A stretch of 41,948 bases of DNA from a candidate division TA06 bacterium (GCA_022704925.1 JAKJFK010000001.1:1-41948), one strand, 5' to 3'; positions 12,684-41,948 are shown, counted from the stretch's first letter. Notes: generated by a model from the letters alone, not told the origin. Numbers and translations: made by a program.

Positions 12684-12691
12684 ATCGCTAA

Positions 12692-27367: not shown

Positions 27368-27370
27368 CTT

Positions 27371-28774
27371 TTATCCTTCTTCTCCGACTTCGAAGGCCGG
27401 CCGGCCAAGTTGTTCCGCCAGCAGCCGCAGGGCCGGCCGCTGGTCTCCGTAAGCCAGGCCCAGGTGATGGGTGCCCCCCAGCCGGCTGTAGCCGGTGAGA
27501 AAATTCTCCACCCGGCCGGGGATTTTCAGCATGAAGTTGGGAACGTCCAGCCCGGGGAACCAGGGTTTGGCCAGGACCCGGCCGCGGGCCATGATGAAGT
27601 TCAATCCGTCGCGGCCGGGCGCCAGGTTGAGAAGCGTGACCGGCCCCGGCTTGAGCTGGAAGAGCAGGCTGGTGGTGGCCAGGCCGGGCTTGATCAGCGA
27701 CATCTCCTTGCGGGCCAGCCGGACCGATTTCGGGTCGCGGGCCAGGTTGGGATTGCTTTCGCCCATGTGGGACATGAAGATCCGGTCGTTCCGGTAGTCG
27801 GTGGTGAACATCTCGACGAAGTTGCCGGCGCCGGCCAGGCCGTGCAGAATCAGCACCGCCGCCGCGCAGAGGATATCGCCCTCGCCGCCGTAGCCCAGTC
27901 CTTCGGCCATCAGCTTGGAGATGGCGGCGAAGGGAATCGCCTCGGCCCCCTCCGCTCCCTCGAAGGCCATGAAATTGATGCCCAGTCCGTTCAGGCGCTC
28001 TTCGGCCACCAGGCGCCGCAGGCCCAGTTCCAGGCGGGCCGCCTGCCGGCGGGTGGCCGGGTCAAGCTTCGGGTCCACCCGGAAACGCCGGTTCTCCGCG
28101 GCCACCAGCCCCTGGATTTCCTTCTCCGGAACCGCGCGTGAGCATTCGGACAGACGGCTTACCGGCAGGTCGACCGCCTGCGGTCCGAGTTGTTCGCGCA
28201 GCCGGCGGTCGTCCCAGGCGAAATCGCCCATGTCTTCAAAACGGCCGCCCAGCCGGCCCAGGCGCGCGCGGCCCAGCCGGCCGGCCGCGGCGGCCGCCCG
28301 GCACCAGTCGTTCACCCCGGCCCGGGCCGCGGCGTCCCGGTAGTGGCCGGTGATCAGGTGGAAGGCCAGGCCTTCCCGCCGCATGACGCTGGCCAGATCC
28401 TGGACGCCGTGCATGCCATGGTTTTTGAACATGTCCGCGCCCGAAAATTCCGTTCCGACCGTCTCCAGTTTCTGGGTGTTCCAGACCAGGATCGGCCGGC
28501 CTCCGAGTTTTTTGAGCGCCGGCGCGATGATCAGGCTCGGGCTGTAGGAGAGGAAGACCAGGATTACCCCGTCGACGCCGGCGGCGGCCAGTTTTTCGAC
28601 GGCCGCCTCCATCTCCGGCCGGGTGCAGACGACCGGCACGTGGGTCAGCTCGAGTTCCCGTTCGAGGCGGCCGGCCAGTTCCCTGGAGAAGGTCTCCAGT
28701 CCGGCTACCAGCTCCGGGACCTTCCGGCGGTAAAGTTCGGCGGTCAGGCCGATCAGCCCGATCCGGGGTTTCAT
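27371..28774 (-). CDS. L-fucose/L-arabinose isomerase family protein
   Basis: About 467 aa. N-terminal Rossmann-like part (IGLIGLTAELY..., VDGVILVFLSY) and C-terminal GGTHHLGLAYGD typical of the fucose/arabinose isomerase superfamily. Specificity is unknown. Confidence 0.7.
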   Translation of the reverse strand: MKPRIGLIGLTAELYRRKVPELVAGLETFSRELAGRLERELELTHVPVVCTRPEMEAAVEKLAAAGVDGVILVFLSYSPSLIIAPALKKLGGRPILVWNTQKLETVGTEFSGADMFKNHGMHGVQDLASVMRREGLAFHLITGHYRDAAARAGVNDWCRAAAAAGRLGRARLGRLGGRFEDMGDFAWDDRRLREQLGPQAVDLPVSRLSECSRAVPEKEIQGLVAAENRRFRVDPKLDPATRRQAARLELGLRRLVAEERLNGLGINFMAFEGAEGAEAIPFAAISKLMAEGLGYGGEGDILCAAAVLILHGLAGAGNFVEMFTTDYRNDRIFMSHMGESNPNLARDPKSVRLARKEMSLIKPGLATTSLLFQLKPGPVTLLNLAPGRDGLNFIMARGRVLAKPWFPGLDVPNFMLKIPGRVENFLTGYSRLGGTHHLGLAYGDQRPALRLLAEQLGRPAFEVGEEG

Positions 28775-28812
28775 GTCATCTCCTTTTTTCGAGGTCTGAT
28801 GAGAGCCGTTTT

Positions 28813-29577
28813 TCAGACGGCCGCGGCCGCCTTCAGCTGTTGGATGAACCGGTCCGGTTTCCGGGCCTGGATGACGTTGCGGCCGAAGACCAGCCCGGCG
28901 GCGCCGGCCCGGAAGGCATTGCGGGCCAGGGCCAGGGCGTCGGCCTCGTTTTTGAACTTGGCCCCGCCGAGGGCGAAGACCGGGATCGGCACCCCGGCGA
29001 CCACCTCGTTGAAGCGCGGGCCGGTGTAGTAGGTTTTGATCAGGTCGGCGCCCAGCTCCCAGGCGATCCGGATCGCCTCCTTGATGTGCCGGTGCAGGCG
29101 TTCGGTCTCGGTGAGGGGGATGAGCGGAATGACCTCCCCGACGAGCGGCAGGCCGGCCCGTTCCTTCTGGCGGGCGATCTTGGTGAAGACCCTGACGTTC
29201 TCGGCGTCGGTCTTTTCGCAGCCGCTCTGGAGGGTCAGGTTGGCCAGGACCAGGTCGGCGCCCAGCGCCAGGGCCTCTTCGGCCTCCAGGGTCGGGTGGG
29301 TGTGGGCCTCCCGGTATTGCCAGGGCATGCAGAGGGCGGTCGTCCAGTTGACCCGGAGGATCAGCGAGGGGCCCTCCTTCCGGTAGAAGACCGGCTTGAC
29401 GCGCGAAAGCACGAAGGGACTCATCAGGATGGCGTCGGCCGAGGCGACCTGGCGGGCGGTTTCAGCCAGGTCGACCAGGCCGGGAATGGGACCGAAGTAC
29501 TGGCCATGGTCGATGGCCACCACGATCGGCTTGCCGTTCGAGAAAAGGCGGGCGGTTCGGATTTCCTTTCCGGTCAT
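28813..29577 (-). CDS. class I aldolase, DhnA/FbaB/LsrF (DeoC/LacD superfamily) type
   Basis: IVVAIDHGQYFGPIPGL, ADLIKTYYTG (Schiff-base Lys context), PVFALGGAK, about 254 aa. Confidence 0.8.
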   Translation of the reverse strand: MTGKEIRTARLFSNGKPIVVAIDHGQYFGPIPGLVDLAETARQVASADAILMSPFVLSRVKPVFYRKEGPSLILRVNWTTALCMPWQYREAHTHPTLEAEEALALGADLVLANLTLQSGCEKTDAENVRVFTKIARQKERAGLPLVGEVIPLIPLTETERLHRHIKEAIRIAWELGADLIKTYYTGPRFNEVVAGVPIPVFALGGAKFKNEADALALARNAFRAGAAGLVFGRNVIQARKPDRFIQQLKAAAAV

Positions 29578-30350
29578 TTTCCCTCCGTGAGGATGATTTT
29601 CAACCCGGCCCGCCGCAGGCGGCTCAATTCCCGCGGGTCGGCGCCCCGGTCGGTGATCAGGCAGTCGATCTTCTTAAGCGTGCCGTAAGGGATGAGCGTT
29701 GTGCGGCCGATCTTGCTGCGGTCGGCCAGCACCACCACCACTTGGCTGATCCGCATGGCGGTCTCCTCGATCCGGGCCGAGTCGACGTCGGTGGTGGTCA
29801 GGCCGTCGGCGGCGGTCAGGCCGTCGATGCCCAGGAAGGCCTTGTTGAGATGAAACTTTTCCAGCTCGGCCAGGACGGCCGGGCTGAAGAAATCGAGCAG
29901 CTCCCGGCGCAGGAAGCCGCCGAGCAGGAAGATCTTCAGGCTTTGATTGCGCTGGAGTTCGCCGGCGGCCGGCAGCGAGTTGGTGACCACGGTGAAGGTC
30001 CGGTCGGTCCGGCCGATGAGCCGGGCCATTTCCCGGGCGGTGGTGCCGGAGTCCAGGAAGATGGTGTCCCCCTCTTTCAGCAGGGCCAGGGCGCGCCGGG
30101 CGATGGCTGCCTTGGCCGCCCGGTTCCGCTCGGCCTTGCGCGGGAAGAGAAATTCGTCCGGAATGTCCTGACGGACCGCCCCGCCGTAGGTGCGGACCAG
30201 GAAACCGGTCTTCTCCAGGCGTTCCAGATCGCGGCGGATCGTGGCCGTGGAAGCGCCGGTCCGGCGGACCAGCGCCGCCACCGAAACCAGGTTTTCCTCT
30301 TCCAGCGCCCGGCGGATCAGGTCGGTCCGGCGCAGTTGGCCGATGCCCAT
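29574..30350 (-). CDS. DeoR-family transcriptional regulator
   Basis: N-terminal HTH VSVAALVRRTGASTATIRRDLERLEKTG and a C-terminal DeoR sugar-phosphate sensor domain (FLDSGTT..., AFLGIDG). ATGA overlap with the downstream aldolase gene. Confidence 0.9.
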   Translation of the reverse strand: MGIGQLRRTDLIRRALEEENLVSVAALVRRTGASTATIRRDLERLEKTGFLVRTYGGAVRQDIPDEFLFPRKAERNRAAKAAIARRALALLKEGDTIFLDSGTTAREMARLIGRTDRTFTVVTNSLPAAGELQRNQSLKIFLLGGFLRRELLDFFSPAVLAELEKFHLNKAFLGIDGLTAADGLTTTDVDSARIEETAMRISQVVVVLADRSKIGRTTLIPYGTLKKIDCLITDRGADPRELSRLRRAGLKIILTEGK

Positions 30351-30361
30351 ATGGATTATAT

Positions 30362-30390
30362 TATTATCTTTTTGTTTGTTTTATGTCAAG
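30362..30390 (-). promoter_or_regulatory. candidate promoter of the DeoR operon, TTGACA-17-TAATAA (minus strand), start codon only about 10 nt downstream
   Basis: Read on the minus strand as TTGACAtaaaacaaacaaaaagaTAATAAtataatccatATG. There is no Shine-Dalgarno-like sequence before the ATG at 30350, so the mRNA may be leaderless or nearly so. Confidence 0.4.
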
Positions 30391-30391
30391 T

Positions 30392-30410
30392 TTTGATTGA
30401 TTTTGATTGT
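30392..30410. repeat. tandem direct repeat TTTTGATTG-A-TTTTGATTG immediately upstream of the -35 of the DeoR operon promoter
   Basis: A perfect 9-mer is repeated with 10-nt phasing (30392-30400 and 30402-30410). Confidence 0.6.
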
Positions 30411-30451
30411 TTGGCAAACCGGCCCGTTTCGGCCGGGAGTGAGCCTTGTTT

Positions 30452-31441
30452 TCAGCCGGCGGCCCGGCGGCACCAGCCGGCCAGGCGGACGAGATAGTCG
30501 CGGTATTCGGCCAGGGAGACGCCCGGGGGTGTCTGGTGGTCCACGCCGGGAACGTAGCCGCCCCCGGCCATGACCGGTCGGAGGCGTTCGAACTCGGCCT
30601 CCACGGCCGCCTCACCCCGGTTGAGGACCATCTTGTCGAAGGCGCCGATGAATCGGTGGCGTGGATGGCGCCGGCGCAGCTCGACGATGTCCACGCCGGC
30701 CTGGTGCTCCAGGGGCAGGAAGGCATCCACGCCGGTCGGCGCGAACCACTCCAGCAGGGGGCCGATCTGGCCGTCGGAGTCGATTACCGCCGGCCAGCCG
30801 AACTCCTTCAGGCGGGGGACGATGCGCCGGTAGTAGGGGGAAATGAACTCGTCGAAGGTCTTGCGGGAGAGCATCGGGCCGTGGTTGTACGACATGTCCT
30901 CGCTGAAGAGGACCAGTTCCGGGCGGATTGTTTGCCGGGCCGCCTCGAGGATCCGGAGGTGGTAATCGGCGAGGTCCTCGATTATCAGGCGCATCGCCTC
31001 CGGGTGATCGTAGAAGGCGTAGAGGTGGGCCTCGATGCCGAAGAGTATGCGCGGAAACCAGAAGGGGCCCTCGAGGATCAGGCCGGTGACGATGTCGCGG
31101 TTTCGCTGGGCGTCGGCCGCTTCGGCCAGCCAGGCGGTGGCCTGGCCGGTGCCGGGGTAGAGGAAGTCCTTGAGGCGCCGGTAGCCTTCCAGGTCGGCGA
31201 TCAGCCGGTCCGCTTTTTCGAGCTGGCCGTACTCGGGGCGCATGGCGCTGAGTTTCCTTATCTGGAAACGGTCCAGTCCGAACCAGTCCTGGATCGCGAC
31301 CACGGCGGTAAGCTCGGCCGGCAACCCCTCGGTCCGCCAGCGCTTGATGGTCTGGTCCCACCAGGGGGCCCACTCGACCACCGGCAGCCGGTCGACCGGC
31401 TGGAATTCGAACGTCCGGGTAAAGCGTTCGCGGTTGGTCAT
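30452..31441 (-). CDS. URO-D family protein, paralog 4
   Basis: MTNRERF...PVDRLP, VIDSDGQIGPLL, GGYVPGVDHQTPPGV. Same subtype as the paralogs at 9830 and 39105. Confidence 0.8.
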   Translation of the reverse strand: MTNRERFTRTFEFQPVDRLPVVEWAPWWDQTIKRWRTEGLPAELTAVVAIQDWFGLDRFQIRKLSAMRPEYGQLEKADRLIADLEGYRRLKDFLYPGTGQATAWLAEAADAQRNRDIVTGLILEGPFWFPRILFGIEAHLYAFYDHPEAMRLIIEDLADYHLRILEAARQTIRPELVLFSEDMSYNHGPMLSRKTFDEFISPYYRRIVPRLKEFGWPAVIDSDGQIGPLLEWFAPTGVDAFLPLEHQAGVDIVELRRRHPRHRFIGAFDKMVLNRGEAAVEAEFERLRPVMAGGGYVPGVDHQTPPGVSLAEYRDYLVRLAGWCRRAAG

Positions 31442-31448
31442 CGGCCGA

Positions 31449-32879
31449 TCATCCTTTCACCAGTTCGCGGGGGAAGATGGTGTCCAACCCCAGGATTCCG
31501 GCCGGGTCGAGGACCTTCTTGACCGCCACCATCTGGGCGATGCCCTCCCGGCCGTACATGAGTTCCAGCCACTGGTACTTGATTTTGCCGATCCCGTGCT
31601 CGGCGGCGATGGTGCCTCCCAGCGCGATGACCTTGAGGGCCGCCTCCCGGTAGAGACCGTAGGCCTCCTCCCGTTCGGCCTCGTTCTTCGGGAAGAAGTT
31701 GAAGTGGAGGTGATTCTCGCCGATGTGGCCGAAGAGGACCGTCTCCAGATGGCGGTTGGCGGAACGCATCTCCTGGTAAAAGCGGTAGAGCTCGTGGAAG
31801 TGGCGGCCCGGCACGGCGAAATCAAGCGAGACCTTGAGCGACTTGATGGTTTTGAAGTAGTTGTTGATGTTCTCCGGGAGCCGGTGACGGAAGCCGATCA
31901 GCTTTTCGTAGGCGGCCGGGTCGGCCCCGACCCAGGTATCGACCAGCGGGTACTTCTCCAGGATCTCCAGCCAGGTTTCCAGTTCGCCGGCCAGACCCTC
32001 GACGTAGAAGGCGAACCGGGCTTCGGCCGGGATCTGGGGGAAATCCTGGACCAGGAAGTCCAGGCTGTGCCGGTCGAAATACTCCAGGGAGAGGGTTTCG
32101 AGTTTCCGCTGACCGCGGATCTCCTCCAGCAGCGGCAGCATTCGTGCCTCGTCGGAGAGGAAGAGAAGCATGATCATGCGCGGCGGCAGGGCCGGGATCA
32201 GTTTCACCTCGACCTCGGTGAAGACGGCCAGCGTGCCTTCCGAGCCGATGAAGAGGTCGATGGCGTCCAGGCCCGGGCGCGAGAAGTAACCGGCCGAGCA
32301 CTTGATTTCCGGCGTGCGGTAGTCGGGGATCCGGATCACCTTGTTCCCGATTTCCAGACGGCCGTTGGCATCGGCCCTGACCTCGCCCCGGCGCAGGTCG
32401 ATCACCTCGCCGTCGGAGAGGACCAGGCGCAGGCGGTTTACGTACTGGCGGGTCGGTCCGAAGCGGTAACTGTACTCGCCGGAGGCGTTGGTGGAGACAT
32501 TGCCGGAGATCATGGCCGTGCGTTCGGTGGGGAAGGGCGGATAGAAGCGGCCGACCCGGTCGATCGCCGCCAGGAACTTCTCGACCACCACGCCGGCCTG
32601 GAGAGAGGCCCGCTGCGCGGCTGGATCGATCGTCAGGATGCGGTCGAGCCGTTCCACTGAAATGATGCGGCCGCCGACCGGGATGCGGCCGGCCACGGTC
32701 CCGGTGCCGCCGGCCGAGATGGTGAGCGGCTGTCCGGCCTCACTGCATTCCGTCAGCACCCGGACAACTTCGGATTCGTTTTCAGGCAGATAGAGACCGT
32801 CGGCCGCGCCCCGGCGGAAGTTGGAACTGTCCTCCAGGTAGCCGGCGATTTCTTCCGGAGCGTTCTTATAGATTATCAT
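31449..32879 (-). CDS. FAD-linked oxidase (GlcD/D-lactate dehydrogenase-like, FAD_binding_4 plus C-terminal oxidase domain)
   Basis: LTISAGGTGTVAGRIP, GSEGTLAVFTEVEVKL, GGTIAAEHGIGKIK, about 476 aa. Its stop lies 7 nt before the URO-D paralog start. Confidence 0.85.
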   Translation of the reverse strand: MIIYKNAPEEIAGYLEDSSNFRRGAADGLYLPENESEVVRVLTECSEAGQPLTISAGGTGTVAGRIPVGGRIISVERLDRILTIDPAAQRASLQAGVVVEKFLAAIDRVGRFYPPFPTERTAMISGNVSTNASGEYSYRFGPTRQYVNRLRLVLSDGEVIDLRRGEVRADANGRLEIGNKVIRIPDYRTPEIKCSAGYFSRPGLDAIDLFIGSEGTLAVFTEVEVKLIPALPPRMIMLLFLSDEARMLPLLEEIRGQRKLETLSLEYFDRHSLDFLVQDFPQIPAEARFAFYVEGLAGELETWLEILEKYPLVDTWVGADPAAYEKLIGFRHRLPENINNYFKTIKSLKVSLDFAVPGRHFHELYRFYQEMRSANRHLETVLFGHIGENHLHFNFFPKNEAEREEAYGLYREAALKVIALGGTIAAEHGIGKIKYQWLELMYGREGIAQMVAVKKVLDPAGILGLDTIFPRELVKG

Positions 32880-32901
32880 TTTTATATTTTAACCCAAACG
32901 A

Positions 32902-32930
32902 TTGACGGAAACCAAAATTTCTGTTATCTT
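32902..32930 (+). promoter_or_regulatory. candidate promoter TTGACG-17-TATCTT
   Basis: Hexamers read directly from the divergent intergenic region between 32879 (minus-strand gene) and 32968 (plus-strand gene). Confidence 0.35.
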
Positions 32931-32934
32931 TTTT

Positions 32935-32949
32935 GCGTTGGACCAACGC
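32935..32949. promoter_or_regulatory. perfect palindrome GCGTTGG-A-CCAACGC between the putative -10 and the Shine-Dalgarno-like sequence; candidate operator
   Basis: 7-1-7 perfect dyad. A 1-nt loop is too small for an RNA hairpin, so a dimeric repressor site is more plausible. Confidence 0.4.
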
Positions 32950-32967
32950 GAAAAAGGAGATGGAGTG

Positions 32968-33951
32968 ATGATCAAGGTGGCATTGGTTGGCGCTGGTTTC
33001 ATGGGTGGCATGCATTCGGCCTGTTACCAGGCCGTCGAGGGGGCCGAACTGGCCTGGGTGGTGGACACCGACGCGGACCGGGCCGCCAAGCTGGCCGGCC
33101 GGCACGAGGCCCGTCCGACCGTTGACCTGGACGAGGCGCTGGCCGATCCGGCCGTTTCGCTGGTGGATGTCTGCCTGCCGACCGACCAGCACCCGGAGAA
33201 CGTCATCCGGGCCTGCCGGGCCGGCAAGAACGTCATCTGCGAGAAACCGATTGCCCTTACCCTGGCCGAGGCCGACCGCATGATCGCCGCCGCCCGGGAG
33301 AACCGGGTCAGGTTCATGGTGGCCATGGTGATAAGATTCTGGCCGGCTTACCAGCGGTTGACGGAAATTTACCGGAGCGGAGAACTCGGGAAACTGCAGG
33401 CCCTGACCCTGCAGCGGGTCTCTTCGCTGCCCACCTGGACCTGGAAGGATTGGATCCTCGACCGGAAGCGCAGCGGCGGCGCGGTGCTGGACATGCACAT
33501 CCACGATACCGATTTCGCCTACCACCTGCTCGGTCTTCCCCGGCAGATCGAGAGCCGGCTGGCGCCGACCAACCACGGTTTCATCTACTCGGTTTTCAGT
33601 TACCCGGGGACCACGGTGATGATCGAGGGCGGCTGGCACGAGGCCCGGAGCTGTCCTTTCTTCTCGGCCTACGAGGCGGTCTTCGAGAAAGGCGTGGTCA
33701 GTTACGACACCCGGCTGGTCCCGGACTTCACCATCTACCGGGAGGACCGGAAAGAAAACCCGGTTCTGCCCAGCCGCAAGGGGGGCGGCGACAGCGGCGG
33801 AAATATCTCCGACCTGGGCGGTTACTACAACGAGATCGCCTACCTGATCGACTGCCTCGAACGGGGCCGGGAACCCGAACTGGCCAGCGCTCAGAGCGCC
33901 CGCGAATCGCTGGCTCTGCTGCTCCAGGAGCTGGAGCAGGCCGGTCTCTGA
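32968..33951 (+). CDS. Gfo/Idh/MocA family oxidoreductase
   Basis: MIKVALVGAGFMGGMH Rossmann start, the ICEKPIALT motif, about 327 aa. AAGGAGA Shine-Dalgarno-like sequence 7 nt before ATG 32968. Confidence 0.85.
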   Translation: MIKVALVGAGFMGGMHSACYQAVEGAELAWVVDTDADRAAKLAGRHEARPTVDLDEALADPAVSLVDVCLPTDQHPENVIRACRAGKNVICEKPIALTLAEADRMIAAARENRVRFMVAMVIRFWPAYQRLTEIYRSGELGKLQALTLQRVSSLPTWTWKDWILDRKRSGGAVLDMHIHDTDFAYHLLGLPRQIESRLAPTNHGFIYSVFSYPGTTVMIEGGWHEARSCPFFSAYEAVFEKGVVSYDTRLVPDFTIYREDRKENPVLPSRKGGGDSGGNISDLGGYYNEIAYLIDCLERGREPELASAQSARESLALLLQELEQAGL

Positions 33952-34068
33952 CGCCGCCAACAAAGCTGGCCGGGCCGAAGGCGGACCGTCAAGTTTCAGG
34001 TCTCGAATTCGGACCGGAATCAGCTCTGGGAATTACCTTGAGTAATCCGGACCGAAGGCGGACCGGGA

Positions 34069-35586
34069 TCAGCGGGCAAAGGGCCGGGCGTGCCTTCCCA
34101 GGTGCTTGGCCAGGCACCGGTAGTGCTCCAGTTCCTCGGCTTCCAGGGTTCGGTAAAATTCCGTCCGGAACCGGTAGGAACCGTCTTCCGTCCGGGCGGT
34201 GAGGACCGAGCCGAAGGTTACGTGCAGCATCTGCCGGGTATGAAAATCATCGAGGGAAGCTTCCAGGTCTCCGTTTGAGAGTGCGTTCTCCGGCGGCACC
34301 CGGTCGATTTTGGCCGAGACGTGGTAGGAGGCCCGGTCGGTCTCGTAACGTTCGCGGGCGAAACGGTAGATGGCCCGATAAAGTTCCGGGTTGGTGTCGG
34401 CAATGGTCCGGACCGCCTCCAGATAGCTGGTGCCGGCCGTCTTCAGGTGAACCCTTCCTTCGGTTACCTCGGCGATCGTCGGGTAGAGGCTGAATTTATC
34501 CGAGCCGGAGTGGATGGAAATCTTGTAATTCCCGAGCTGCCGGGCCACCGCCCGGTGGCGGATCAGCTCCTTCCGGAATTCATCCAGGTTACCGATGTAG
34601 TCCACCCCTTTTTCGAAGCGGCCGACGAAGCGCGGCGCCAGGCTGACCCAGGTCACCCCGGCCCGGGCCAGTTCCGAGGCCACGAAATAATGTTCGCCGA
34701 CGGTGGTGGGCGTCAGTGTTTCGTCGACCGACATCTCGAGTTCGAAGGTGCGTCCGGCCGCGGCCGATTTCAGGGTCTGGTACATCATCACCGTGTGTTT
34801 GATGGCCCGGCCGTATTTGACGGCGGCCCGGAGCAGTTCGGTCTCCGAAAACTCCAGGCTGCTTCCGCCGGGCAGTTTTACCTTGCCGGACAGGTATGAT
34901 TTGCGCAGGCGGTCCAGGTTGAGGTCGGGCGCCTCGGCCCCCAGGCCGCGGCACTTGGAAAGCAGCGTTTCGGGGGCGTCGGTGTCGGCCTGGTTGTCAA
35001 CCTGGTCGCCGGGGTCGATCGTAAAAAGGGTGAAGCCGGCCCGCAGGCAATCGGCCAGATCGGCCGGGGTCTTGAGATGGTCGGCGTCCGAACCGAAGCC
35101 GTCGGTGTAGCCGGTCTGGAAGATGCCCCAGAGGGCCTCGTCCATGACCTGCTGCGGGTGGCGGCCGGTGCGAGCCATCTCCCGGATGGACTGCTGGGCC
35201 AGGTAAGGAAAGAGGTTGGTTCCTTCGATGGCCCGGATGTGGCCGGGCGTGGCCAGGCCGAGCCGGTCGCCCAGGCCGATCGAGGTCCGCCCTTCCGAAC
35301 GGACCGGCCGCAGGTAATCGAGGGCCTTCCGAAGCGCGGCGGCGTTGGCCGGCGTGAGTTCTCCCACCAGTATCCGGCCGGCGATCATCGTTCCTTCAAA
35401 GCCGGCCCGGCGCAGGTCAGTCTCATCCCCTTTGACCAGCAGCTGTTTCCCCTTTTCGGAACGGGCCAGCGCGTAGGTTCGCCCGGCCGTGGCCACCGTG
35501 GAATCCGGGTAGACCTCCAGGTTCGTGAACTCCGCCTGGAGTTCGGTCGTTCGGCCGGGTGCCTTCTGAAATTCAAGTTCGGCCAT
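34069..35586 (-). CDS. uxaE: tagaturonate/fructuronate epimerase (UxaE) family protein
   Basis: GLGDRLGLATPGHIRA, FGSDADHLK, FTIDP, SVDETLTPT, KISIHSGSDKFSLYP, HLKTAGTSYLEA. These match my memory of the Thermotoga UxaE family at about 500 aa. Confidence 0.75.
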   Translation of the reverse strand: MAELEFQKAPGRTTELQAEFTNLEVYPDSTVATAGRTYALARSEKGKQLLVKGDETDLRRAGFEGTMIAGRILVGELTPANAAALRKALDYLRPVRSEGRTSIGLGDRLGLATPGHIRAIEGTNLFPYLAQQSIREMARTGRHPQQVMDEALWGIFQTGYTDGFGSDADHLKTPADLADCLRAGFTLFTIDPGDQVDNQADTDAPETLLSKCRGLGAEAPDLNLDRLRKSYLSGKVKLPGGSSLEFSETELLRAAVKYGRAIKHTVMMYQTLKSAAAGRTFELEMSVDETLTPTTVGEHYFVASELARAGVTWVSLAPRFVGRFEKGVDYIGNLDEFRKELIRHRAVARQLGNYKISIHSGSDKFSLYPTIAEVTEGRVHLKTAGTSYLEAVRTIADTNPELYRAIYRFARERYETDRASYHVSAKIDRVPPENALSNGDLEASLDDFHTRQMLHVTFGSVLTARTEDGSYRFRTEFYRTLEAEELEHYRCLAKHLGRHARPFAR

Positions 35587-35596
35587 GTTGCCTCCC

Positions 35597-36841
35597 TTAG
35601 CGTTTGCGGTAGTCGGCCAGCGGAACGTGATCCTGGATGCGGATCGCCCGGCCCCTGGCGATGGAACGGTTGGCCGCCGCCCCGATCAGCATCGAGATGG
35701 CGCCCTCGTATGAACCGGCCATGTGGTTCAGGGGATCGGGCAGGTCGCCCCGGAAGAGCATCCGCCGCAGCCGGGTATCGCCGCCACCATGGCCGCCGGT
35801 GGCCTTGGGCACCTGGTAGGTGATCCGCTCGTTCCGCCGGTTGAAGAAGGTGACCGTCTGGTGCGTGCCGCCGGTGCTGTCGCCGCTCTGGTACTCGGCG
35901 ACCTCGATCCGGCCGTCGGTGCCGCTGACGCTGGCCCGGAATCCCTCGTAGGGGGAGTGGGCGACCAGCGAGTAAGTCAGCAGGGCGCCGCCGGAATACC
36001 GGACGTTCACGCTCATGCTGTCCTCGATGTCGATTTCTTCGGAGAAGACGCAGCCGTCGCGGTGGTACCCGTCATGTTTCTCCGCTTCCAGGTACATCTT
36101 GACCATTCTTTCGTTGGCGGTGAGATCGAAGTAAAACTCGCAGCTGGAACGGTGGCGGCAGGTCAGGCAGCGCTGGCCGCGTTTTTTCCGGTTCGGCCCG
36201 TAAAAGCGCAGGCTGCCGAAGGCGTTGACCACTTCCGGTTCTTCGCCCACCCACCAGTTAATGGCGTCAAAATGGTGGGTGGCCTTGTGGACCAGCAGCC
36301 CGCCGGAGTTTTCCTTGCGCCGGTGCCAGCGGCGGAAATAATCGGCGCCGTGGCGGGTGTCCAGCAGCCACTCGAAATCGACGTTGAGGATGGTGCCGAC
36401 CAGGCCGTCCCGGAGCAGTTCCCGGATCCTGGTTATGTAGGGGGTGAACCGGTAATTGAAGGTGACAATGACCTTGCGGCCGGTGCGGGCCTCGGTCTCC
36501 AGGATCTGGCGGCACTTCTCCAGGTCAACGGTCATCGGCTTCTCGGTGATCGCGTCCAGGCCGGCCTCCAGGGCCCGGATGATGTACTCGTGGTGGTACC
36601 GGTCGACCGTGGTGACGATGACCGTTTCCGGCCGGGTCTCCCGGATCATCCGGTCGTAATCGGTGTAGGTCCGGCAGTCCAGCCGGCAGAATTCCTTGAC
36701 GTAGGCGGACCGGACCGGGTTGGGGTCGAAGATGCCGACCACCTCGGCGACATCGGCGTACTCTTCCTTGAGTGGATAGGCGTACATGCCCAGGCCCCGG
36801 CCGCTGGCACCGACCAGGGCGTAGCGTTTGCGCTGCTTCAT
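35597..36841 (-). CDS. Gfo/Idh/MocA family oxidoreductase (long form)
   Basis: RYALVGASGRG Rossmann start, the ITEKPMTV motif, LVHKATHHFD, about 414 aa. Confidence 0.85.
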   Translation of the reverse strand: MKQRKRYALVGASGRGLGMYAYPLKEEYADVAEVVGIFDPNPVRSAYVKEFCRLDCRTYTDYDRMIRETRPETVIVTTVDRYHHEYIIRALEAGLDAITEKPMTVDLEKCRQILETEARTGRKVIVTFNYRFTPYITRIRELLRDGLVGTILNVDFEWLLDTRHGADYFRRWHRRKENSGGLLVHKATHHFDAINWWVGEEPEVVNAFGSLRFYGPNRKKRGQRCLTCRHRSSCEFYFDLTANERMVKMYLEAEKHDGYHRDGCVFSEEIDIEDSMSVNVRYSGGALLTYSLVAHSPYEGFRASVSGTDGRIEVAEYQSGDSTGGTHQTVTFFNRRNERITYQVPKATGGHGGGDTRLRRMLFRGDLPDPLNHMAGSYEGAISMLIGAAANRSIARGRAIRIQDHVPLADYRKR

Positions 36842-36884
36842 CCTTTTTTTCCTCGTTCCTTAGCGTGATCGGGCGCCCGCGTTT

Positions 36885-37922
36885 CTACAGGTACTTCTTG
36901 AAGAAGTCGAAGGCCCGGCGACCGCTGAAGGCGTGCGGTCCGGGATGGATGTCGGTCCAGAGATCGGCTGCGGCCTCGGCGGCCCGGTAGATCCGTTCCA
37001 CGCCCCGGTAGCCCTCGAGCTGGTCCTGGATAAAGAAGCAGGTGTCGTAGATGCCCATTTCCAGCAGCAGTGGCCGTGGGGCGATGAGTCCGGCGATATC
37101 GTCGGTGTCGAAGTATCGGTAGAGGTTGGGGACCATCTGGGAGCCGCACCAGTTGGCGCGCTCGATGGCAAAGCCCCGCCAGGAATTCACATAGCCGATG
37201 ATATCGGCGGCCCGGATGCGCGGTTCGACGGCCGTGGTGAAGGTGGTCATGGTGCCGCCCTGGGAGAGGCCCATCATCCCGATCCGGTCCGGATCGACCT
37301 CGGGCCGGGTCTGGAGATAGTCGACGCAGCACTTCATGTCCCAGATATTCAAGGTCAGCGTGTAGACACCCAGCATGGCTCCCTTGAGAAAATTGATATT
37401 GCAGGGATCGCGGCCGGGGAAGGGGTCGGCGCCGTCGCGCCGTTCGCCGAAGACGCGCAGGTCGGGCGCCAGGGTGATAAAGCCGGCCCGGGCCATCTGC
37501 TCGGCGTAATTATAATTGTGCGCGGCGATGTTCTGCTCGACGGCCGCCGAGCTCCGGAATCCGGCCACGGCATCCTTGCCGTGGAGGCCGTGGCCGTGGC
37601 TGCAGAGAATGGCCGCCTGCTTACGGTCGGCGGCCATCCGGCGCGGCTTGAGCAGTAGGCAGGGAACCGACATGAACGCCTCGGAATTGAGCACTACCCG
37701 TTCCCGGACCAGATCGCCCTCGGTTACCGAGTATTCCACCTCGGCTTGCAACGGCACCGGTTTCGGGAAATCGCCCAGCAGTTCCAGCAGTTTCGGCAGC
37801 GCCTTTTTCCGCCAGGTCCGCCAGTCGTTCCGGCTCCGGCCCCGGAAAGCCAGCAAAGGTTTCCAGTCTTCGAATTTCCGGTTCCAGTAAGACTGCATCG
37901 AGAAATTCCGTCGGGCGGACAT
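36885..37922 (-). CDS. alpha/beta hydrolase, acetyl-xylan-esterase/dienelactone-hydrolase-like
   Basis: CSHGHG, nucleophile elbow GMMGLSQGG, and a C-terminal His region, about 345 aa. Confidence 0.8.
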   Translation of the reverse strand: MSARRNFSMQSYWNRKFEDWKPLLAFRGRSRNDWRTWRKKALPKLLELLGDFPKPVPLQAEVEYSVTEGDLVRERVVLNSEAFMSVPCLLLKPRRMAADRKQAAILCSHGHGLHGKDAVAGFRSSAAVEQNIAAHNYNYAEQMARAGFITLAPDLRVFGERRDGADPFPGRDPCNINFLKGAMLGVYTLTLNIWDMKCCVDYLQTRPEVDPDRIGMMGLSQGGTMTTFTTAVEPRIRAADIIGYVNSWRGFAIERANWCGSQMVPNLYRYFDTDDIAGLIAPRPLLLEMGIYDTCFFIQDQLEGYRGVERIYRAAEAAADLWTDIHPGPHAFSGRRAFDFFKKYL

Positions 37923-37954
37923 GTTTCGATAGCCTCGGATTCGGGTTGCCCGTT

Positions 37955-39061
37955 TCAGGCGGGCCGGTAGTTGTTGACCAGGTCGGCGACGATCTTCACC
38001 CGGTCGAAATCGGCGTCGGATGGAACATTGTCGCTCATGCCGAGCGCGAAAAGGTTTCCATGCGGCACCCGGGGCAGCAGGTCTTTAATATAGGCGGCCA
38101 GGTCCCGGCGGTCGCCGCCCTGGGGGCACATCAGGACCGAGGGTACGCCGCCCTGGATGACCACCTCCGGCCCGACCGCCTCCAGCGCTTCGGGAATGGT
38201 CAGCCGGGCCATCGGGGCCACCGAGACCGCCTCGATCACATCCAGGCCGCTGCCGGGCACCAGTGGCAGCAGGTGTTCGGTTCGGCCGCACCAGTGGCCC
38301 TGGTAGATCTTGCCGGCCCGGTGCAGGATTTCGGCCACCCGGCGGAAGTAAGGGACGGCCAGGCGCTTGAAGAGGTTCGGCGGCGTGGTCCACTCGTCCA
38401 TATTGTCGCCCTGCTGAACGACCAGCGCCGGTCCGCTTGCCAGCAATTCGGCCCCGGCCAGATTAACCCGCGCGATCACCTCCATCAGTTCCTCGACCAG
38501 CTCCGGGTAATCGGCGTAGAGATAGATGCCGGCCTGGTAACCGGCTTCCTGCTTGGCAAAATGTATGTAAGGGAAGCAGAATGGAAGTCCGACCAGAGAG
38601 ATGCCGTCCTCGCCCACTTCCGCTTCGCTCTCGAGGAAAGAAGTGAAATCGGCCTTGAGGCTGGTATGCTCGAAGAGGTATTTGACCACCGGGATATCCT
38701 CGGCCCGCTTGATCCGGTGCTCCATCAGGTAACAGGTGCGTGCCGAGTCGTCGGCGTACTCGTGCAGGGTGCTGACGGTTCCGACCGGCGTCCGGTATTC
38801 GGTCCGGCGCCGCCGCCCGTCATCCCGCTCGGTCACCTCGACCGTCGGGTCCAGCACCGGCTCCAGGACGTTGGTGCGGACCCAGAGGGTGGCACCGACC
38901 GCCCGGACCAGGTCGTTCCGGCTCAGCCCGGCGTAGGCTTCCGGTATCCGGCCGTTGGCCCGGTTGACCCGGTACCAGTAGTCGAAATTAGGCACGAAGG
39001 GCAGGCGGTCGCCGTTGCCCCTGGTCAGAATACGGGTATAATTTTCCCGCCTGGTAAGCAT
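37955..39061 (-). CDS. URO-D family protein, paralog 5 (retains an H-x-C-G motif)
   Basis: MLTRRENY...GDRLPFVP N-terminus, QQGDNMDEW, YQGHWCGRTEHLLP, LFALGMSDNVP. Confidence 0.8.
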   Translation of the reverse strand: MLTRRENYTRILTRGNGDRLPFVPNFDYWYRVNRANGRIPEAYAGLSRNDLVRAVGATLWVRTNVLEPVLDPTVEVTERDDGRRRRTEYRTPVGTVSTLHEYADDSARTCYLMEHRIKRAEDIPVVKYLFEHTSLKADFTSFLESEAEVGEDGISLVGLPFCFPYIHFAKQEAGYQAGIYLYADYPELVEELMEVIARVNLAGAELLASGPALVVQQGDNMDEWTTPPNLFKRLAVPYFRRVAEILHRAGKIYQGHWCGRTEHLLPLVPGSGLDVIEAVSVAPMARLTIPEALEAVGPEVVIQGGVPSVLMCPQGGDRRDLAAYIKDLLPRVPHGNLFALGMSDNVPSDADFDRVKIVADLVNNYRPA

Positions 39062-39104
39062 GGGTTTTCTGCCTCGCGGTTTTTCAGGCCGGCCGCGGCC
39101 TTTT

Positions 39105-40232
39105 TCAGAGCCAGCCGGTCAGTTTCGCCAGTTCCCGGCTGTAATGGATGAAGTCGGCCCAGGAGATGTCGGGCGGTACGCCGTGGTCACACGAGGGAAC
39201 GTAGCCGCCGTCAACCAGCATGGGCGGTATCACGCGCTGGAGTTCGGCCTCGATCACCGCTCCGCCCTTGGCGATGGCCCGCTTGTCGATGCCGCCGTGG
39301 TAGGCCATGCTGCGGCCGAACTGCTTCCGGTAGGCGGGCAGGTCATTGCCGGCGGCCACTTCGATCGGCTGGCAGGAGTTAATGCCCGACTCGATCCAGA
39401 GCGGAATCAGTTCGCCGATGTAGCCGTCGGAGTCGACGTCGATGATCCGGCAGCCGCTCCGGCGGGCCGCCGCCGACCAGGTCTGCCAGCAGGGCATCAG
39501 GAAACGGCGGGCCATGGCGGGTGAGATCATGCTCTTGGCCTTATAGGCCATGTCCTCGGAGAAACCGAAATGATCCGGGGCGACGCGGGCAAAGATCCGG
39601 TCCAGGATCGTCATGATGAAATCGCGCCAGAAGAGGGCCATCTCCTCGACCAGTTCCGGGTCCTCGGCCATGAAGAGGCAGAGATTTTCAAAGCCGCACC
39701 AGTTGCGCAGCTGCCAGAAGGGGCCGTTGAACCAGATGCGCAAAACGTAATCCCGGTCGGCCAGCTGCCGGCAGCGGACCTCGAAGTCCTCGGGAAAACG
39801 GCCGGGCGTGTCGGGGTTGAAGCGTTTTTTCATGGCATCCCAGTCGGCCCGGTTTTCGACCGGATGGCGGTGGTACTTGCGGGTTACGAAGTCCTTGGCG
39901 CTGCGCAGGTAGGTAAAATCGTACCGGTCGGAGACCTCGACGATCTCGCCCCGGATGGTCTGCATCAGGTAATGGCCGTCGCGGTGCTCAAGAATCTTCT
40001 CTTCGAAGGCCGGCATCAGGTCGAAGTTGACCCCCAGGTTGACCTGCGGCTTGGTTGTCTCCGGTTGGATCCCCAGCGTTTCCATCAGGACTTCAGACCA
40101 GGGGCGGTCGGCCGGGAGGCCCTCCTGGTGCCAGCGCTTGAGCGTGGATTCGCGGGGGCCGCCCGGCAGCAGCGGTAACCGGTCCGGTTTGCCAAAGGTG
40201 AGCGCCTCGATCCATCTTTCTCTTGCGTTCAT
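39105..40232 (-). CDS. URO-D family protein, paralog 6
   Basis: MNARERW...PDRLPL, IDVDSDGYIGELIP, GGYVPSCDHGVPPDI. Same subtype as the paralogs at 9830 and 30452. Confidence 0.8.
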   Translation of the reverse strand: MNARERWIEALTFGKPDRLPLLPGGPRESTLKRWHQEGLPADRPWSEVLMETLGIQPETTKPQVNLGVNFDLMPAFEEKILEHRDGHYLMQTIRGEIVEVSDRYDFTYLRSAKDFVTRKYHRHPVENRADWDAMKKRFNPDTPGRFPEDFEVRCRQLADRDYVLRIWFNGPFWQLRNWCGFENLCLFMAEDPELVEEMALFWRDFIMTILDRIFARVAPDHFGFSEDMAYKAKSMISPAMARRFLMPCWQTWSAAARRSGCRIIDVDSDGYIGELIPLWIESGINSCQPIEVAAGNDLPAYRKQFGRSMAYHGGIDKRAIAKGGAVIEAELQRVIPPMLVDGGYVPSCDHGVPPDISWADFIHYSRELAKLTGWL

Positions 40233-40406
40233 TGTTTTCCCCCCGGTTTTTTCCGTTGATGGTTTAAATAGCGGCCCGGCCGGCTGATCCAGCCGTGATT
40301 ATTTATCCTCAATTTTAACATTTTAAGTTTTTTTTGCCTATTTATCACGGCGAACGGGGAAGGATTGGACGTTGGATCCGGGGCGAAGCTGGAGGCCGGC
40401 CGGGTT

Positions 40407-41510
40407 TCAGCGGGCCGGGGTTGGGCCGGGACAGTTAAGGTGGCGAAGCTGGATTCTTTCTTCGAGGCGGATGGGGTGACCGCCGGCATCCTCTCCCTCC
40501 CAGGTGAAAATGGCGACCCCGTTGCACAGCAGGTGGGGGCGCGAGGAGATCCAGTAGGTGTCCCGGGCGCTGCCGCCGGCCTCCACCCTGATTCTCGGTC
40601 TTGGAATCCGGGCGTCATTCTCTCCCATCCAGAGGCCGCCGCGGGGATCGAGGATGAATCCCTGTCCGCTGACCCGGTAACCGATCTGCCCGCCGCGTTC
40701 GTAGAGTTGGGTTGTCCACCTCCAGCGGGGTCCTGGGGCGTTGACGTCTCCGTCGTCGGCGTCGACCACGGCCGAAACGACGATCTCCGGGACCGCCTTC
40801 CGCCCGGCCAGCCAGGCCAGCCTTTCCCGGGCCGCGGCCGCGTGTTCTCCGGACGGGAATTGTTCCAGGTAGGCCCGGTAATCCGAGTGCCAGTCGGTCT
40901 CCCGCGCCTCCCGGAAGCGGAGCGGATCGAGCCGCTCCCTGGCCAGTCCGGCGGCCGGCCCGGCCGGGTATTCCGAAAGGTACCGTTCGCAGTTCTCGAT
41001 GGTCGCCTTGCTTCTGATCTGCCCGGCCAGGGCGGCTTCCCCGGCCGGTTCGGTGTTGGACACGGCCGCTTCCGCCGGCGGCGCCGGGGCGGCCGGTTTC
41101 TTCAACCTCGACCGGGCCGCGCCGGCGAACTTTCCGGCCGGGTAAGCCTTCAGGTAATCCCTGAGTGCGGCCGGCGTCTTTTCAGCCAGGCAGGCCCGCC
41201 AGAAGACATTCTCCGGGATTTTGATCAGTTCTCCCAGAACCCAGCCGGAGCCGCCGGCGTGCTCCACCCGGAACCATTCCTTCTTCTTCTCGAGGAGCCG
41301 GATTTTTTCGCCCTGGTTGACCTTGGCCAGGATATCCGAATGGAGATCGGGCATGGCCCGGACCCGGGCCGCCGAGACGCGTACCGTGGCTTCGCCGAGC
41401 GGCTCGGCCGCCGGGCAGCCGGTCAGCCGGAATAAAAGGATGCTTCCGGTCAGCACGGCTGCGGTGACCTTGAGAAATCTGGTTCGGAGGGAGCGGAAAC
41501 GGTCCGTCAT
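40407..41510 (-). CDS. lipoprotein with bacterial SH3 domain and three YL..YP.G...A..A+.RL repeats
   Basis: Signal peptide plus lipobox LTGC. SH3-like VRVSAARVRAMPDLHSDILAKVNQGEKIRLLEKKKEWFRVE. Three repeats: RDYLKAYPAGKFAGAARSRL, ERYLSEYPAGPAAGLARERL and RAYLEQFPSGEHAAAARERL. ATG 41510 was chosen; the upstream extension in the ORF track overlaps thiL. Confidence 0.7.
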   Translation of the reverse strand: MTDRFRSLRTRFLKVTAAVLTGSILLFRLTGCPAAEPLGEATVRVSAARVRAMPDLHSDILAKVNQGEKIRLLEKKKEWFRVEHAGGSGWVLGELIKIPENVFWRACLAEKTPAALRDYLKAYPAGKFAGAARSRLKKPAAPAPPAEAAVSNTEPAGEAALAGQIRSKATIENCERYLSEYPAGPAAGLARERLDPLRFREARETDWHSDYRAYLEQFPSGEHAAAARERLAWLAGRKAVPEIVVSAVVDADDGDVNAPGPRWRWTTQLYERGGQIGYRVSGQGFILDPRGGLWMGENDARIPRPRIRVEAGGSARDTYWISSRPHLLCNGVAIFTWEGEDAGGHPIRLEERIQLRHLNCPGPTPAR

Positions 41511-41948
41511 TTTCGGAAATGGTCGTAGCCGGGATGCCGGGGCCGGTAAGGGCGGCCGTTGGCGGTCACCCTTACGCCCCGGCCGGCCGGCAGCACCTCG
41601 CCCACCACGAAGCATCCGGATCGGCGGGCCGCCCCGGCTTGGGAGGCAGGGATCGTGAAGAGCAGTTCGAATTCCTCGCCGCTGACCAGGGCCTCTCCAG
41701 GTGCGGTCCCGGGCACGACGGGTATCTCCTCCAGCCGGATGATTCCGCCGACCCGGCTCTCTTCCGAAATCCGGGTGAAGTCGCCCAGCATTCCGTCGGA
41801 GATGTCGATCATGGCGGTGGCTTTCAGTTCCCGCCTGATCCGGCGCGCCTCACTGACCCTGGGCAGGAAGGAGAGGTGGCTTTTCGGGCCGCGGCCCAGC
41901 GGGCCCGAGACGCAGATCAGGTCGCCCGGCCGGGCGCCCGAGCGGCGG
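41507..41948 (-). CDS. thiL: thiamine-monophosphate kinase, N-terminus outside window
   Basis: The minus-strand frame is open to the window edge. It reads ...PGDLICVSGPLG...AMIDISDGMLGD...EFELLFT..., the AIR-synthase-related/ThiL C-terminal layout. ATGA overlap with the lipoprotein gene start. Confidence 0.8.
   Translation of the reverse strand, partial: RRSGARPGDLICVSGPLGRGPKSHLSFLPRVSEARRIRRELKATAMIDISDGMLGDFTRISEESRVGGIIRLEEIPVVPGTAPGEALVSGEEFELLFTIPASQAGAARRSGCFVVGEVLPAGRGVRVTANGRPYRPRHPGYDHFRK

Follow-up and report, generated by a model that had tools for sequence, protein, structure and literature searches.

The window, a 41,948-nt stretch of DNA from a candidate division TA06 bacterium (GCA_022704925.1 JAKJFK010000001.1:1-41948), carries on its minus strand a tight row of five genes, each with an ATG start. 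They encode two proteins of the URO-D fold (URO-D A and URO-D B), a serine esterase, a large NAD(P) oxidoreductase of the Gfo/Idh/MocA family (large Gfo) and a tagaturonate/fructuronate epimerase of the UxaE family (Table 1). The gaps along the row are 43, 32, 43 and 10 nt, and the GC content of the five-gene stretch (0.63-0.65) is like that of the flanking DNA. Our open reading frame (ORF) listing reproduces exactly the layout and gaps of an original prediction made from the sequence of the window, and the gene family identities and operon-like arrangement that it proposed are borne out by Pfam matches and by the AlphaFold2 (AF2) model of URO-D A.

Table 1. Coordinates and assignments of features in the window, from the five-gene row outward
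Feature	Coordinates	Strand	Basis or remark
AT-rich promoter-like region	40298-40348	-	Three overlapping sigma-70-like hexamer pairs, 5' of URO-D A
URO-D A, URO-D-fold, 375 aa	39105-40232	-	Fold by AF2 model; Pfam sub-threshold
URO-D B, URO-D-fold, 368 aa, putative zinc site	37955-39061	-	Pfam URO-D match
Alpha/beta-hydrolase serine esterase (Abhydrolase_7), 345 aa	36885-37922	-	Pfam match
Large Gfo/Idh/MocA NAD(P) oxidoreductase, 414 aa	35597-36841	-	Both Pfam domains
UxaE, tagaturonate/fructuronate epimerase family, 505 aa	34069-35586	-	PF16257
Convergent intergenic region, 117 nt	33952-34068	.	Long imperfect hairpin and 14-nt direct repeat
Second Gfo/Idh/MocA oxidoreductase	32902-33951	+	Pfam; divergent from FAD oxidase, convergent with UxaE
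FAD-linked oxidase, GlcD/D-2-hydroxyacid dehydrogenase type, 476 aa	31449-32879	-	Pfam/NCBIfam
URO-D C, third URO-D-fold paralogue, 329 aa	30452-31441	-	Pfam, 51.2 bits
DeoR-family sugar repressor	29574-30350	-	Pfam
DhnA/LsrF-type class I aldolase	28813-29577	-	Pfam
AraA-like isomerase	27371-28774	-	Pfam
Xylulokinase-like FGGY kinase	25952-27367	-	Most similar to XylB, 235 bits
HNH endonuclease	14611-15543		
Vsr mismatch endonuclease	13944-14621		
Dcm-type C5 cytosine methylase	12998-14218		

The five genes and their products

Upstream of the row, an AT-rich spacer of 174 nt separates URO-D A from an SH3-domain gene, and a Shine-Dalgarno-like GGGGGG run stands 7 nt ahead of the URO-D A ATG (40232). 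At the other end the UxaE stop codon (34069) faces that of a plus-strand gene for a second Gfo/Idh/MocA protein (second Gfo; 33951). The convergent spacer between them holds two copies of the 14-nt direct repeat CCGAAGGCGGACCG and folds as a long imperfect hairpin (z = -2.0); no canonical terminator was found 3' of UxaE, only this hairpin, and transcription of the five-gene unit probably ends in this spacer. The window gave no match in Rfam and tRNA scans.

The window sequence occurs in metagenomes of activated sludge and anaerobic digesters, and the host is an uncultured, probably anaerobic bacterium of these habitats. The best matches of the window's proteins point no further than to Omnitrophota, Planctomycetota and related uncultured lineages. 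Four biofilm metatranscriptome runs contain 11-19% of the window's sampled words. Contigs from these RNA runs cover all parts of the locus, at low depth and with DNA carry-over possible, and span two of the four junctions within the row, that of URO-D A with URO-D B (39040-39347) and that of the large Gfo with UxaE (35390-35745). The runs point to low-level transcription of the locus in situ; at such depth, and with carry-over possible, co-transcription of the five genes is supported, not proven. The same contigs are deepest at 33300-34550, a segment that takes in the convergent spacer and the 3' ends of the two genes flanking it, UxaE and the second Gfo gene; convergent transcripts may overlap here, or a stable RNA may derive from a 3' end.

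The original prediction had staked itself on the UxaE-like protein belonging to the epimerase family, and it falls well inside. Residues 26-499 match positions 1-471 of the 475 in PF16257 at 532.6 bits (cutoff 27.1), and two PDB structures named tagaturonate/fructuronate epimerase are matched with E = 6.5e-121 (9lhu) and E = 1.1e-108 (6il9). An alignment of 9 sequences shows no variation in the motifs GDRLGLATPGH, AQQSxRE, DxDH, SVDET, HSGSDKF and KTAGTS, and those with the catalytic acid/base and metal-site residues (AQQSxRE, DxDH and HSGSDKF) are kept also in a pairwise alignment with 9lhu. By these sequence measures the protein is unambiguously a genuine member of the family, and by homology it would interconvert D-tagaturonate and D-fructuronate. 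The UxaE mechanism is a metal-dependent retro-aldol/aldol epimerisation in which Glu126 and Asp159 have assigned roles (PMC11194214); going by alignment position, these roles may be given to the Glu of AQQSxRE and the Asp/His of DxDH in the window protein.

Our Pfam scan of the window took one ORF of at least 150 aa from each overlapping set. Among the ORFs scanned there is no UxaC, UxaB/UxuB, UxaA/UxuA, KdgK, KdgA or transporter, in agreement with the original prediction, which had listed UxaB, UxaC, KdgK, KdgA and transporters as missing. Set beside the UxaE pathway of Thermotoga maritima (structures from Cohnella laeviribosi, 6IL9/6ILA/6ILB, and 9LHU/9LHW), the window protein is alike in matching PF16257 over its full length and in keeping all motifs. 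Its company is different, however: UxaC, UxuB, UxuA, KdgK and KdgA do not accompany it, and its partners are Gfo/Idh/MocA proteins, an FAD-linked oxidase, an esterase and URO-D-fold proteins. Yet another setting is found on Phycisphaerae-like contigs (L065 8515-13231, L147 6511-11332 and L148 6454-11320), where the closest UxaE homologues stand in a conserved four-gene row in the order 6-phosphogluconate-dehydrogenase-like gene, UxaE, short-chain dehydrogenase (SDR) and a gene for a 296-aa protein; a pectinesterase gene adjoins the row in L065. This context, which is unlike both that of Thermotoga and that of the window, fits the classical uronate role.

With the Pfam URO-D profile (PF01208), URO-D A reaches 22.3 bits, short of the gathering cutoff of 23.9. 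Its fold assignment holds despite the sub-threshold score because the AF2 model (predicted local distance difference test, pLDDT, 91) matches the structures of UroD and MtaA, its best Foldseek hits (template-modelling (TM) score ~0.6, identity 9-17%). URO-D B reaches 47.2 bits, and its model (pLDDT 95) shows the URO-D barrel, to which a beta subdomain is added at the N-terminus; the top Foldseek matches of the two models are UroD and MtaA, with E from 1e-9 to 5e-13 and TM 0.58-0.63. URO-D A has more than 5500 homologue clusters in the database, and the 120 homologues listed, at 60-67% identity, come from Omnitrophota, Armatimonadota, Planctomycetota, Latescibacteria, Anaerolineae and Firmicutes. 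Its alignment has ~100 invariant columns and its motifs include SEDMAY, DSDG and GGYVPSCDH; there is no HxC zinc motif, and the C-terminal C-D-H motif aligns with the G-H-G motif of UroD. The URO-D B family is small (~120 clusters). It was predicted that one of the two subtypes would carry an HxCG motif, and in URO-D B both H256-W-C258-G and E277 are indeed invariant in 27 homologues, with C312 kept in at least 90%. In alignment, the HWCG stretch corresponds to the zinc ligands H-I-C-G of MtaA (4ay7), and URO-D B thereby carries a putative zinc site of the MtaA/MetE type, consisting of H256-x-C258, E277 and C312.

The MtaA-type methyltransferases, methyltransferase I of the O-demethylases and MetE belong to the Pfam clan URO-D_CIMS, and we compared the window proteins with these and with UroD. 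The HemE profile TIGR01464 matched neither URO-D A nor URO-D B, and the third paralogue of the window, URO-D C, reached 17.8 bits against a cutoff of 303; haem-pathway neighbours were looked for around the URO-D genes and none was found. The MtaA/CmuA profile TIGR01463 gave 21.9 bits for URO-D B (cutoff 235) and no match for URO-D A. Sequence searches of the PDB with the two proteins returned no informative match, and profile searches gave marginal matches to UroD, MtaA and CdmB that served for motif alignment only. URO-D A is thus like HemE/UroD in fold and in its C-terminal G/C-(D)-H-G motif, but differs in its low identity, in the absence of a haem-biosynthesis context and in having four paralogues within the 42-kb window. 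With zinc-dependent MtaA/MtbA/CmuA, methyltransferase I of the O-demethylases and MetE, URO-D B has the TIM-barrel fold and the H-x-C-G...E...C motif in common, but its identity to them is at most 15%, its score with the equivalog hidden Markov model (HMM) is far under the cutoff, no corrinoid protein partner was found, and it has the added beta subdomain and a carbohydrate context.

The best Pfam family of the esterase is Abhydrolase_7 (46.9 bits). GLSQGG (with Ser220) and GPHAF (with His330) are invariant in a four-sequence alignment, and an HGHG motif is also present. The protein had been likened to acetyl-xylan or carbohydrate esterases; the likeness to CE7 and CE15 stands for ~45 residues at the nucleophile elbow, but no full-domain match was obtained, with AXE1 scoring 21.4 bits over residues 196-239 only, GCE_fung 23.3 bits (cutoff 27) and CE15 structures in the PDB giving E above 0.09. 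Abhydrolase_7 itself contains putative acetyl-xylan esterases only, has no CAZy family and has no demonstrated activity (PMC12103068). With the putative acetyl-xylan esterases of Bacteroides in ESTHER Abhydrolase_7 (3NUZ, 3G8Y), and with CE7/CE15, the window protein shares the alpha/beta-hydrolase fold, the GxSxG motif and the catalytic His. Unlike those Bacteroides enzymes it is apparently cytoplasmic, its N-terminus having no signal peptide visible by eye.

The large Gfo matches PF01408 (74.4 bits; N-terminal Rossmann domain) and PF02894 (83 bits; C-terminal domain) and has an invariant EKP motif (E100-K101-P102). Four further invariant cysteines, C225-x2-C228-x5-C234...C264, lie in an insertion in the C-terminal domain; this Cys4 insertion (residues 225-264) is a probable structural zinc or iron-sulfur site, and we know of no report of it in characterised Gfo/Idh/MocA members. 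The subfamily spans 411-414 aa and is conserved at 53-67% identity across phyla. PDB matches are weak, restricted to the N-terminal half and start at E ~1e-14; they are 6z3b/6z3c (named only Gfo/Idh/MocA oxidoreductase, and presumably the R. gnavus 2,7-anhydro-sialic-acid oxidoreductase NanOx), YjhC, DgpA and glucuronide-3-dehydrogenase. The window protein resembles these enzymes, the glycoside 3-dehydrogenases and GH109 in its Rossmann and GFO C-terminal domains, its EKP motif and its carbohydrate context, and is set apart from them by its 411-414-aa length and the invariant CxxCx5C...C insertion.

Recurrence of the genes in other genomes

Across genomes, the gene set is a loosely coupled neighbourhood module, whose members recur in twos to fives and in variable order. 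A scan anchored on URO-D B, with one genome per GTDB species and tblastn searches with all window proteins, gave 55 loci, of which a single one, in the Omnitrophota metagenome-assembled genome JAZDPL01 (L006/L009), has all five genes. The order in L006 is URO-D A (62% identity), a diversity-generating retroelement, URO-D B (60%), large Gfo (66%), a UxaE-family gene (38-40%), another URO-D gene and the esterase (70%). The UxaE-family gene may belong to a different subfamily, independently recruited. The retroelement (L006 5453-9981), lying between the homologues of URO-D A and URO-D B, comprises bAvd, an RVT_1 reverse transcriptase, a likely target protein with an FGE-sulfatase domain and a ParE-type toxin-antitoxin pair.

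A second instance came from a sludge contig with the closest UxaE homologue (L064), which carries three of the five genes and two of their neighbours in the window: esterase (70%), URO-D A (66%), UxaE (57%), FAD-linked oxidase (59%) and second Gfo (59%). There the FAD oxidase gene overlaps the UxaE stop codon and is followed by the second Gfo gene. In the window a ThiL-like (AIRS-domain) gene (41507-41948, minus strand) runs past the right end; it is 57% identical to a gene at 1810-2787 of L064, directly upstream of the esterase. L064 is considered a syntenic relative because its gene set sits directly 3' of this ThiL-like gene. Another AIRS gene of the window (4458-5525) was tried as synteny anchor and rejected at 27% identity. 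The SH3-domain gene, URO-D B and the large Gfo are present in the window only and not in L064, indicating local rearrangement. Because the FAD oxidase and second Gfo genes (31449-33951) migrate together with those for the esterase, URO-D A and UxaE in L064, they belong to the same evolutionary unit, and the original view of the five genes as the whole unit was too narrow. In the lineage of the window the module is shown to take in the FAD oxidase, the second Gfo and the third URO-D paralogue as well, and the functional unit extends at least to 31449.

Smaller subsets are more frequent. The large Gfo orthologue adjoins UxaE in L006 and again in L066, a 2.9-Mb genome in which the Gfo gene (53%) comes after that for UxaE (52%) and an alpha/beta hydrolase and an FGGY kinase are encoded nearby; orthologues of the large Gfo adjoin URO-D B in L042 and L056. 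The commonest true neighbour of URO-D B (n = 57 loci) is an A-like URO-D gene (10 loci), followed by an apparent aldo-keto reductase, recognised by its N-terminal sequence (8), a 148-aa protein (8), DUF362/4Fe-4S proteins (5) and GH172 (5). FGGY kinases adjoin URO-D genes in L002, L034, L037 and L038, and homologues of an isomerase and a kinase encoded downstream of the window row lie near the URO-D B gene in L029. Further carbohydrate contexts include (i) L001, where URO-D A keeps company with GalK, a sulfatase and a GH42-like gene; (ii) L002, with ADH, FGGY and class II aldolase genes, where URO-D A and the aldolase gene share the last few bases of the latter; (iii) L004, where URO-D genes lie beside Macro and GCE_fung (CE15-like esterase) genes; and (iv) L149, where an A-type URO-D gene stands with a CE4-type deacetylase and another URO-D gene.

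Anchoring on the esterase gave 80 metagenome loci at 43-76% identity, many on short contigs. None has all five genes, and the contexts are mostly unrelated. The large Gfo orthologue (52-67% identity) is the top real neighbour (12 of 82 loci), ahead of URO-D A (6) and UxaE (4). Among 140 neighbouring ORFs the commonest Pfam families are Gfo/Idh/MocA, ABC permeases, URO-D, xylose-isomerase-like TIM barrels and sulfatases; these counts are lower bounds, since greedy ORF picking in high-GC DNA also took antisense ORFs. Conservation of the block, on which the original prediction also rested, is therefore partial: all five genes recur in JAZDPL01 and three with two neighbours in L064, but the full set is found at 1 of 55 and 0 of 80 loci, and its order varies. 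We rejected "conserved five-gene operon" as a general statement, most of the 55 URO-D B loci being without the other four genes.

In Firmicute-like loci L107-L113 (e.g. L108 1669-16162) the esterase and a Cys4 Gfo are found with an AraC regulator, NagB, an ABC transporter, an MFS transporter and a NagA-like amidohydrolase. More large Gfo paralogues are present there, one just 3' of the pair and, in L108, another ~7 kb upstream. This setting suggests that the esterase-Gfo pair can serve amino-sugar catabolism in such loci, and it bears on an explanation of the window genes that we consider rather unlikely. By that explanation the pair would form a module for NAD-dependent processing, through a keto intermediate, of an O-acylated glycoside or amino sugar, in the manner of NanOx/YjhC, DgpA, GH109 or glycoside-3-dehydrogenase, with UxaE and the URO-D barrels acting on a neutral or amino keto-sugar. 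The pair is the most recurrent association that we found, in L107-L113 it lies inside an ABC transporter/NagA/NagB/AraC operon with two more large Gfo paralogues, and the xylose-isomerase-like TIM barrels that recur near the esterase are the usual partners in 3-keto-glycoside pathways. The best (weak) PDB matches of the large Gfo point the same way, and enzymes of the UxaE family reportedly take fructose and tagatose. However, NagA and NagB are not in the window, and its UxaE is closest to enzymes named tagaturonate/fructuronate epimerases, keeps all their motifs and has close homologues beside pectinesterase and SDR genes.

Perhaps the row is only a chance juxtaposition of five independent sugar-metabolism genes, the genome being well supplied with paralogues of Gfo/Idh/MocA proteins, URO-D proteins and esterases. 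Most occurrences of each component are in other surroundings, four URO-D and two Gfo paralogues lie within this one window, and the gene order is different in every instance. Chance would nevertheless have to account for short gaps of 10-43 nt on one strand, RNA-run contigs across two junctions, the recurrence of an orthologous set at 60-70% identity in another phylum (L006) and in a syntenic relative (L064), and the overlap of UxaE and FAD oxidase genes in the latter; we judge it quite unlikely.

The surrounding window

Downstream of the convergent spacer, the start of the second Gfo gene is likely the ATG at ~32968 (MIKVALVGAGFMGG) rather than the TTG at 32902, because the Rossmann motif begins at the ATG and the TTG would leave only 22 nt to the start of the FAD oxidase gene; the ATG gives a divergent promoter region of ~88 nt. 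The FAD oxidase gene is followed by that for URO-D C, which is a distant relative of URO-D A (27% identity in pairwise BLAST). Next comes the gene for the DeoR repressor, preceded by a strong promoter-like site of its own (TTGACA-18-AATAAT at 30389-30360), and then aldolase, isomerase and kinase genes, which together (25952-29577) are a candidate DeoR-linked lower-pathway cassette. With this cassette just downstream, it would be too strong to say that no lower pathway is present. A class-III aminotransferase gene (24613-25959) was considered as a member of an amino-sugar route and rejected, the protein being like ArgD-type acetylornithine aminotransferases.

Two other parts of the window deserve mention. 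The fourth URO-D paralogue (17896-19053, plus strand) comes directly after a DUF362 gene (16663-17853, plus strand), and in L007 (10001-12150) and L008 (184-2333) a URO-D B homologue is followed by a protein with DUF362/4Fe-4S ferredoxin domains, beside GH172 and sulfatase genes; URO-D and DUF362 may be a recurring functional couple. A low-GC island (~12300-16300; GC 0.52-0.56 against ~0.65 elsewhere in the window) contains the cytosine methylase, Vsr and HNH endonuclease genes of Table 1, and is probably a horizontally acquired cassette for restriction-modification or very-short-patch repair.

Candidate routes for esterified sugar acids

We tentatively take the five ORFs to be the promoter-proximal half of a ~14-kb cytoplasmic locus for sugar-acid catabolism (25952-40232), a reading to which we give somewhat less than an even chance and which has the following steps. 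(i) The esterase would de-esterify an imported substrate, either a sugar acid or a small glycoside; a hexuronate with acetyl or methyl esters is the most likely one. (ii) The Gfo/Idh/MocA enzymes would carry out NAD-dependent oxidation or reduction at ring or keto positions; the large Gfo, a partner of UxaE in three genomes, would be the foremost candidate for the part of the fructuronate/tagaturonate reductase, which is missing. (iii) UxaE would equilibrate tagaturonate and fructuronate. (iv) The URO-D-fold proteins would provide a metal- or acid-base-dependent step without known counterpart, which might be a uronate isomerisation replacing that of the absent UxaC, a decarboxylation or a demethylation. 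(v) The products would go first to the FAD oxidase and second Gfo, and from these to the DeoR-linked isomerase/kinase/aldolase cassette, not to Ashwell enzymes. In favour of this reading are the layout of the row with its promoter-like region, the family assignments and intact UxaE motifs, the recurrence of the genes in L006/L009, L064 and L066 and of the esterase-Gfo pair, the repeated occurrence of URO-D genes near those for de-acylases and sugar enzymes, the pectinesterase gene near a close UxaE homologue in L065, and the RNA-run contigs over the locus. An acetylated or 4-O-methylated uronate as the substrate is conjecture, and so is the chemistry of the URO-D proteins.

The three options for the URO-D step can be weighed separately. 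The original prediction was of a self-contained five-gene operon acting on a decorated uronate, and in its fullest form the esterase would deacetylate, the URO-D paralogues would be corrinoid-type O-demethylases acting on 4-O-methyl-glucuronate, and the Gfo and UxaE would feed an Ashwell-like pathway. The invariant H-x-C-G...E...C of URO-D B aligns with the zinc ligands of MtaA, a methylcobalamin:CoM methyltransferase, its weak best NCBIfam matches are the MtaA/CmuA methyltransferases, and its profile weakly matches CdmB of Acetobacterium. The weak likeness of the esterase to AXE1 and glucuronoyl esterases, and the CE15-like GCE_fung esterase adjoining URO-D genes in L004, agree with such a substrate. 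Corrinoid-dependent demethylation is weakened, however, because a corrinoid protein, an activase and a second methyltransferase would be needed and no corrinoid gene was found. None of the three was detected among the scanned window ORFs or in L006, L007 and L008 showed no corrinoid protein or activase either, and the top 25 neighbour clusters of the 57 URO-D B loci likewise contain no corrinoid protein, reductive activase or second methyltransferase, although a small corrinoid protein could escape. Moreover, URO-D A and C are without the zinc motif, the TIGR01463 score of URO-D B is less than a tenth of the cutoff, the FAD oxidase and second Gfo migrate with the supposedly self-contained unit, and the Ashwell genes to be fed are absent from the window. 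We regard this version as very unlikely; of the original idea, the decorated-uronate route remains plausible as a reading, and its O-demethylation part is what has lost ground.

The decarboxylation option draws on URO-D A, which has the UroD-type C-terminal His motif and no methyltransferase zinc site. If the URO-D proteins were true decarboxylases, a Gfo might make a beta-keto acid from a uronate or keto-uronate, URO-D might convert it to a pentulose, and the FGGY kinase, most similar to XylB, might pass it to the pentose-phosphate pathway. UDP-glucuronate decarboxylase and the decarboxylation of 3-keto-L-gulonate are chemical precedents. Split transketolase genes adjoin URO-D in L006, and the window has a transketolase gene at 1037-3007, but the latter is more than 30 kb from the cluster. 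Since the evidence is purely analogical, and URO-D genes occur also in contexts with no uronate gene at all, we consider this scheme very unlikely.

Returning to the sugar-acid locus of ~14 kb, several observations weigh against it. (i) The full set of five was found in a single other genome, the surroundings of most homologues of each component are unrelated, and even in L006 the UxaE-family gene is only 38-40% identical to that of the window. (ii) In the Firmicute-like loci the esterase-Gfo pair is accompanied by genes for NagA, NagB and an ABC transporter instead of uronate genes, which points to amino sugars. (iii) The scanned window ORFs include no gene that would specify the substrate, be it a transporter, a glycoside hydrolase or lyase, UxaC, UxuA/B or KdgK/A. 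(iv) The RNA evidence consists of low-depth contigs only. (v) The subfamilies of the esterase, large Gfo, URO-D A and URO-D B have no characterised member and no close PDB relative, and a literature search found nothing linking URO-D-family proteins to carbohydrate loci.

Each single fold at the locus, and the theme of sugar-acid catabolism, are known; the gene combination and the four subfamilies are undescribed. A bolder proposal, speculative and on balance unlikely, is that the URO-D-fold proteins represent a novel class of TIM-barrel enzymes acting on sugars, in which URO-D A, whose closest matches from at least six phyla are about 62-66% identical, might be a non-orthologous uronate/aldose isomerase or a keto-uronate decarboxylase and URO-D B a zinc-dependent, corrinoid-independent de-alkylating or Lewis-acid enzyme. 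With the Cys4 Gfo, the esterase and UxaE they would then make up a non-Ashwell route, so far undescribed, by which uncultured anaerobes (Omnitrophota, Planctomycetota, Armatimonadota and relatives) process esterified hexuronates.

We conclude that the locus is a real, apparently expressed and partly conserved candidate module, for which a sugar-acid route is plausible and unproven. If the association of its genes is incidental, it is another poorly annotated sugar island. The genomes of uncultured anaerobes that degrade polysaccharides abound in URO-D-family proteins without an assigned role, which are routinely mis-annotated as uroporphyrinogen decarboxylase. Here two of them are placed in a tight unit with UxaE, the sole functionally anchored gene. 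An esterase and an oxidoreductase, of which the orthologues keep together in different phyla, complete the unit. With its five soluble, cytoplasmic enzymes and few candidate substrates, the unit makes a testable entry point, which could give functions to several "dark" families and could reveal how anaerobes of digesters and sediments handle uronates derived from pectin or glucuronoxylan without the classical Ashwell enzymes.

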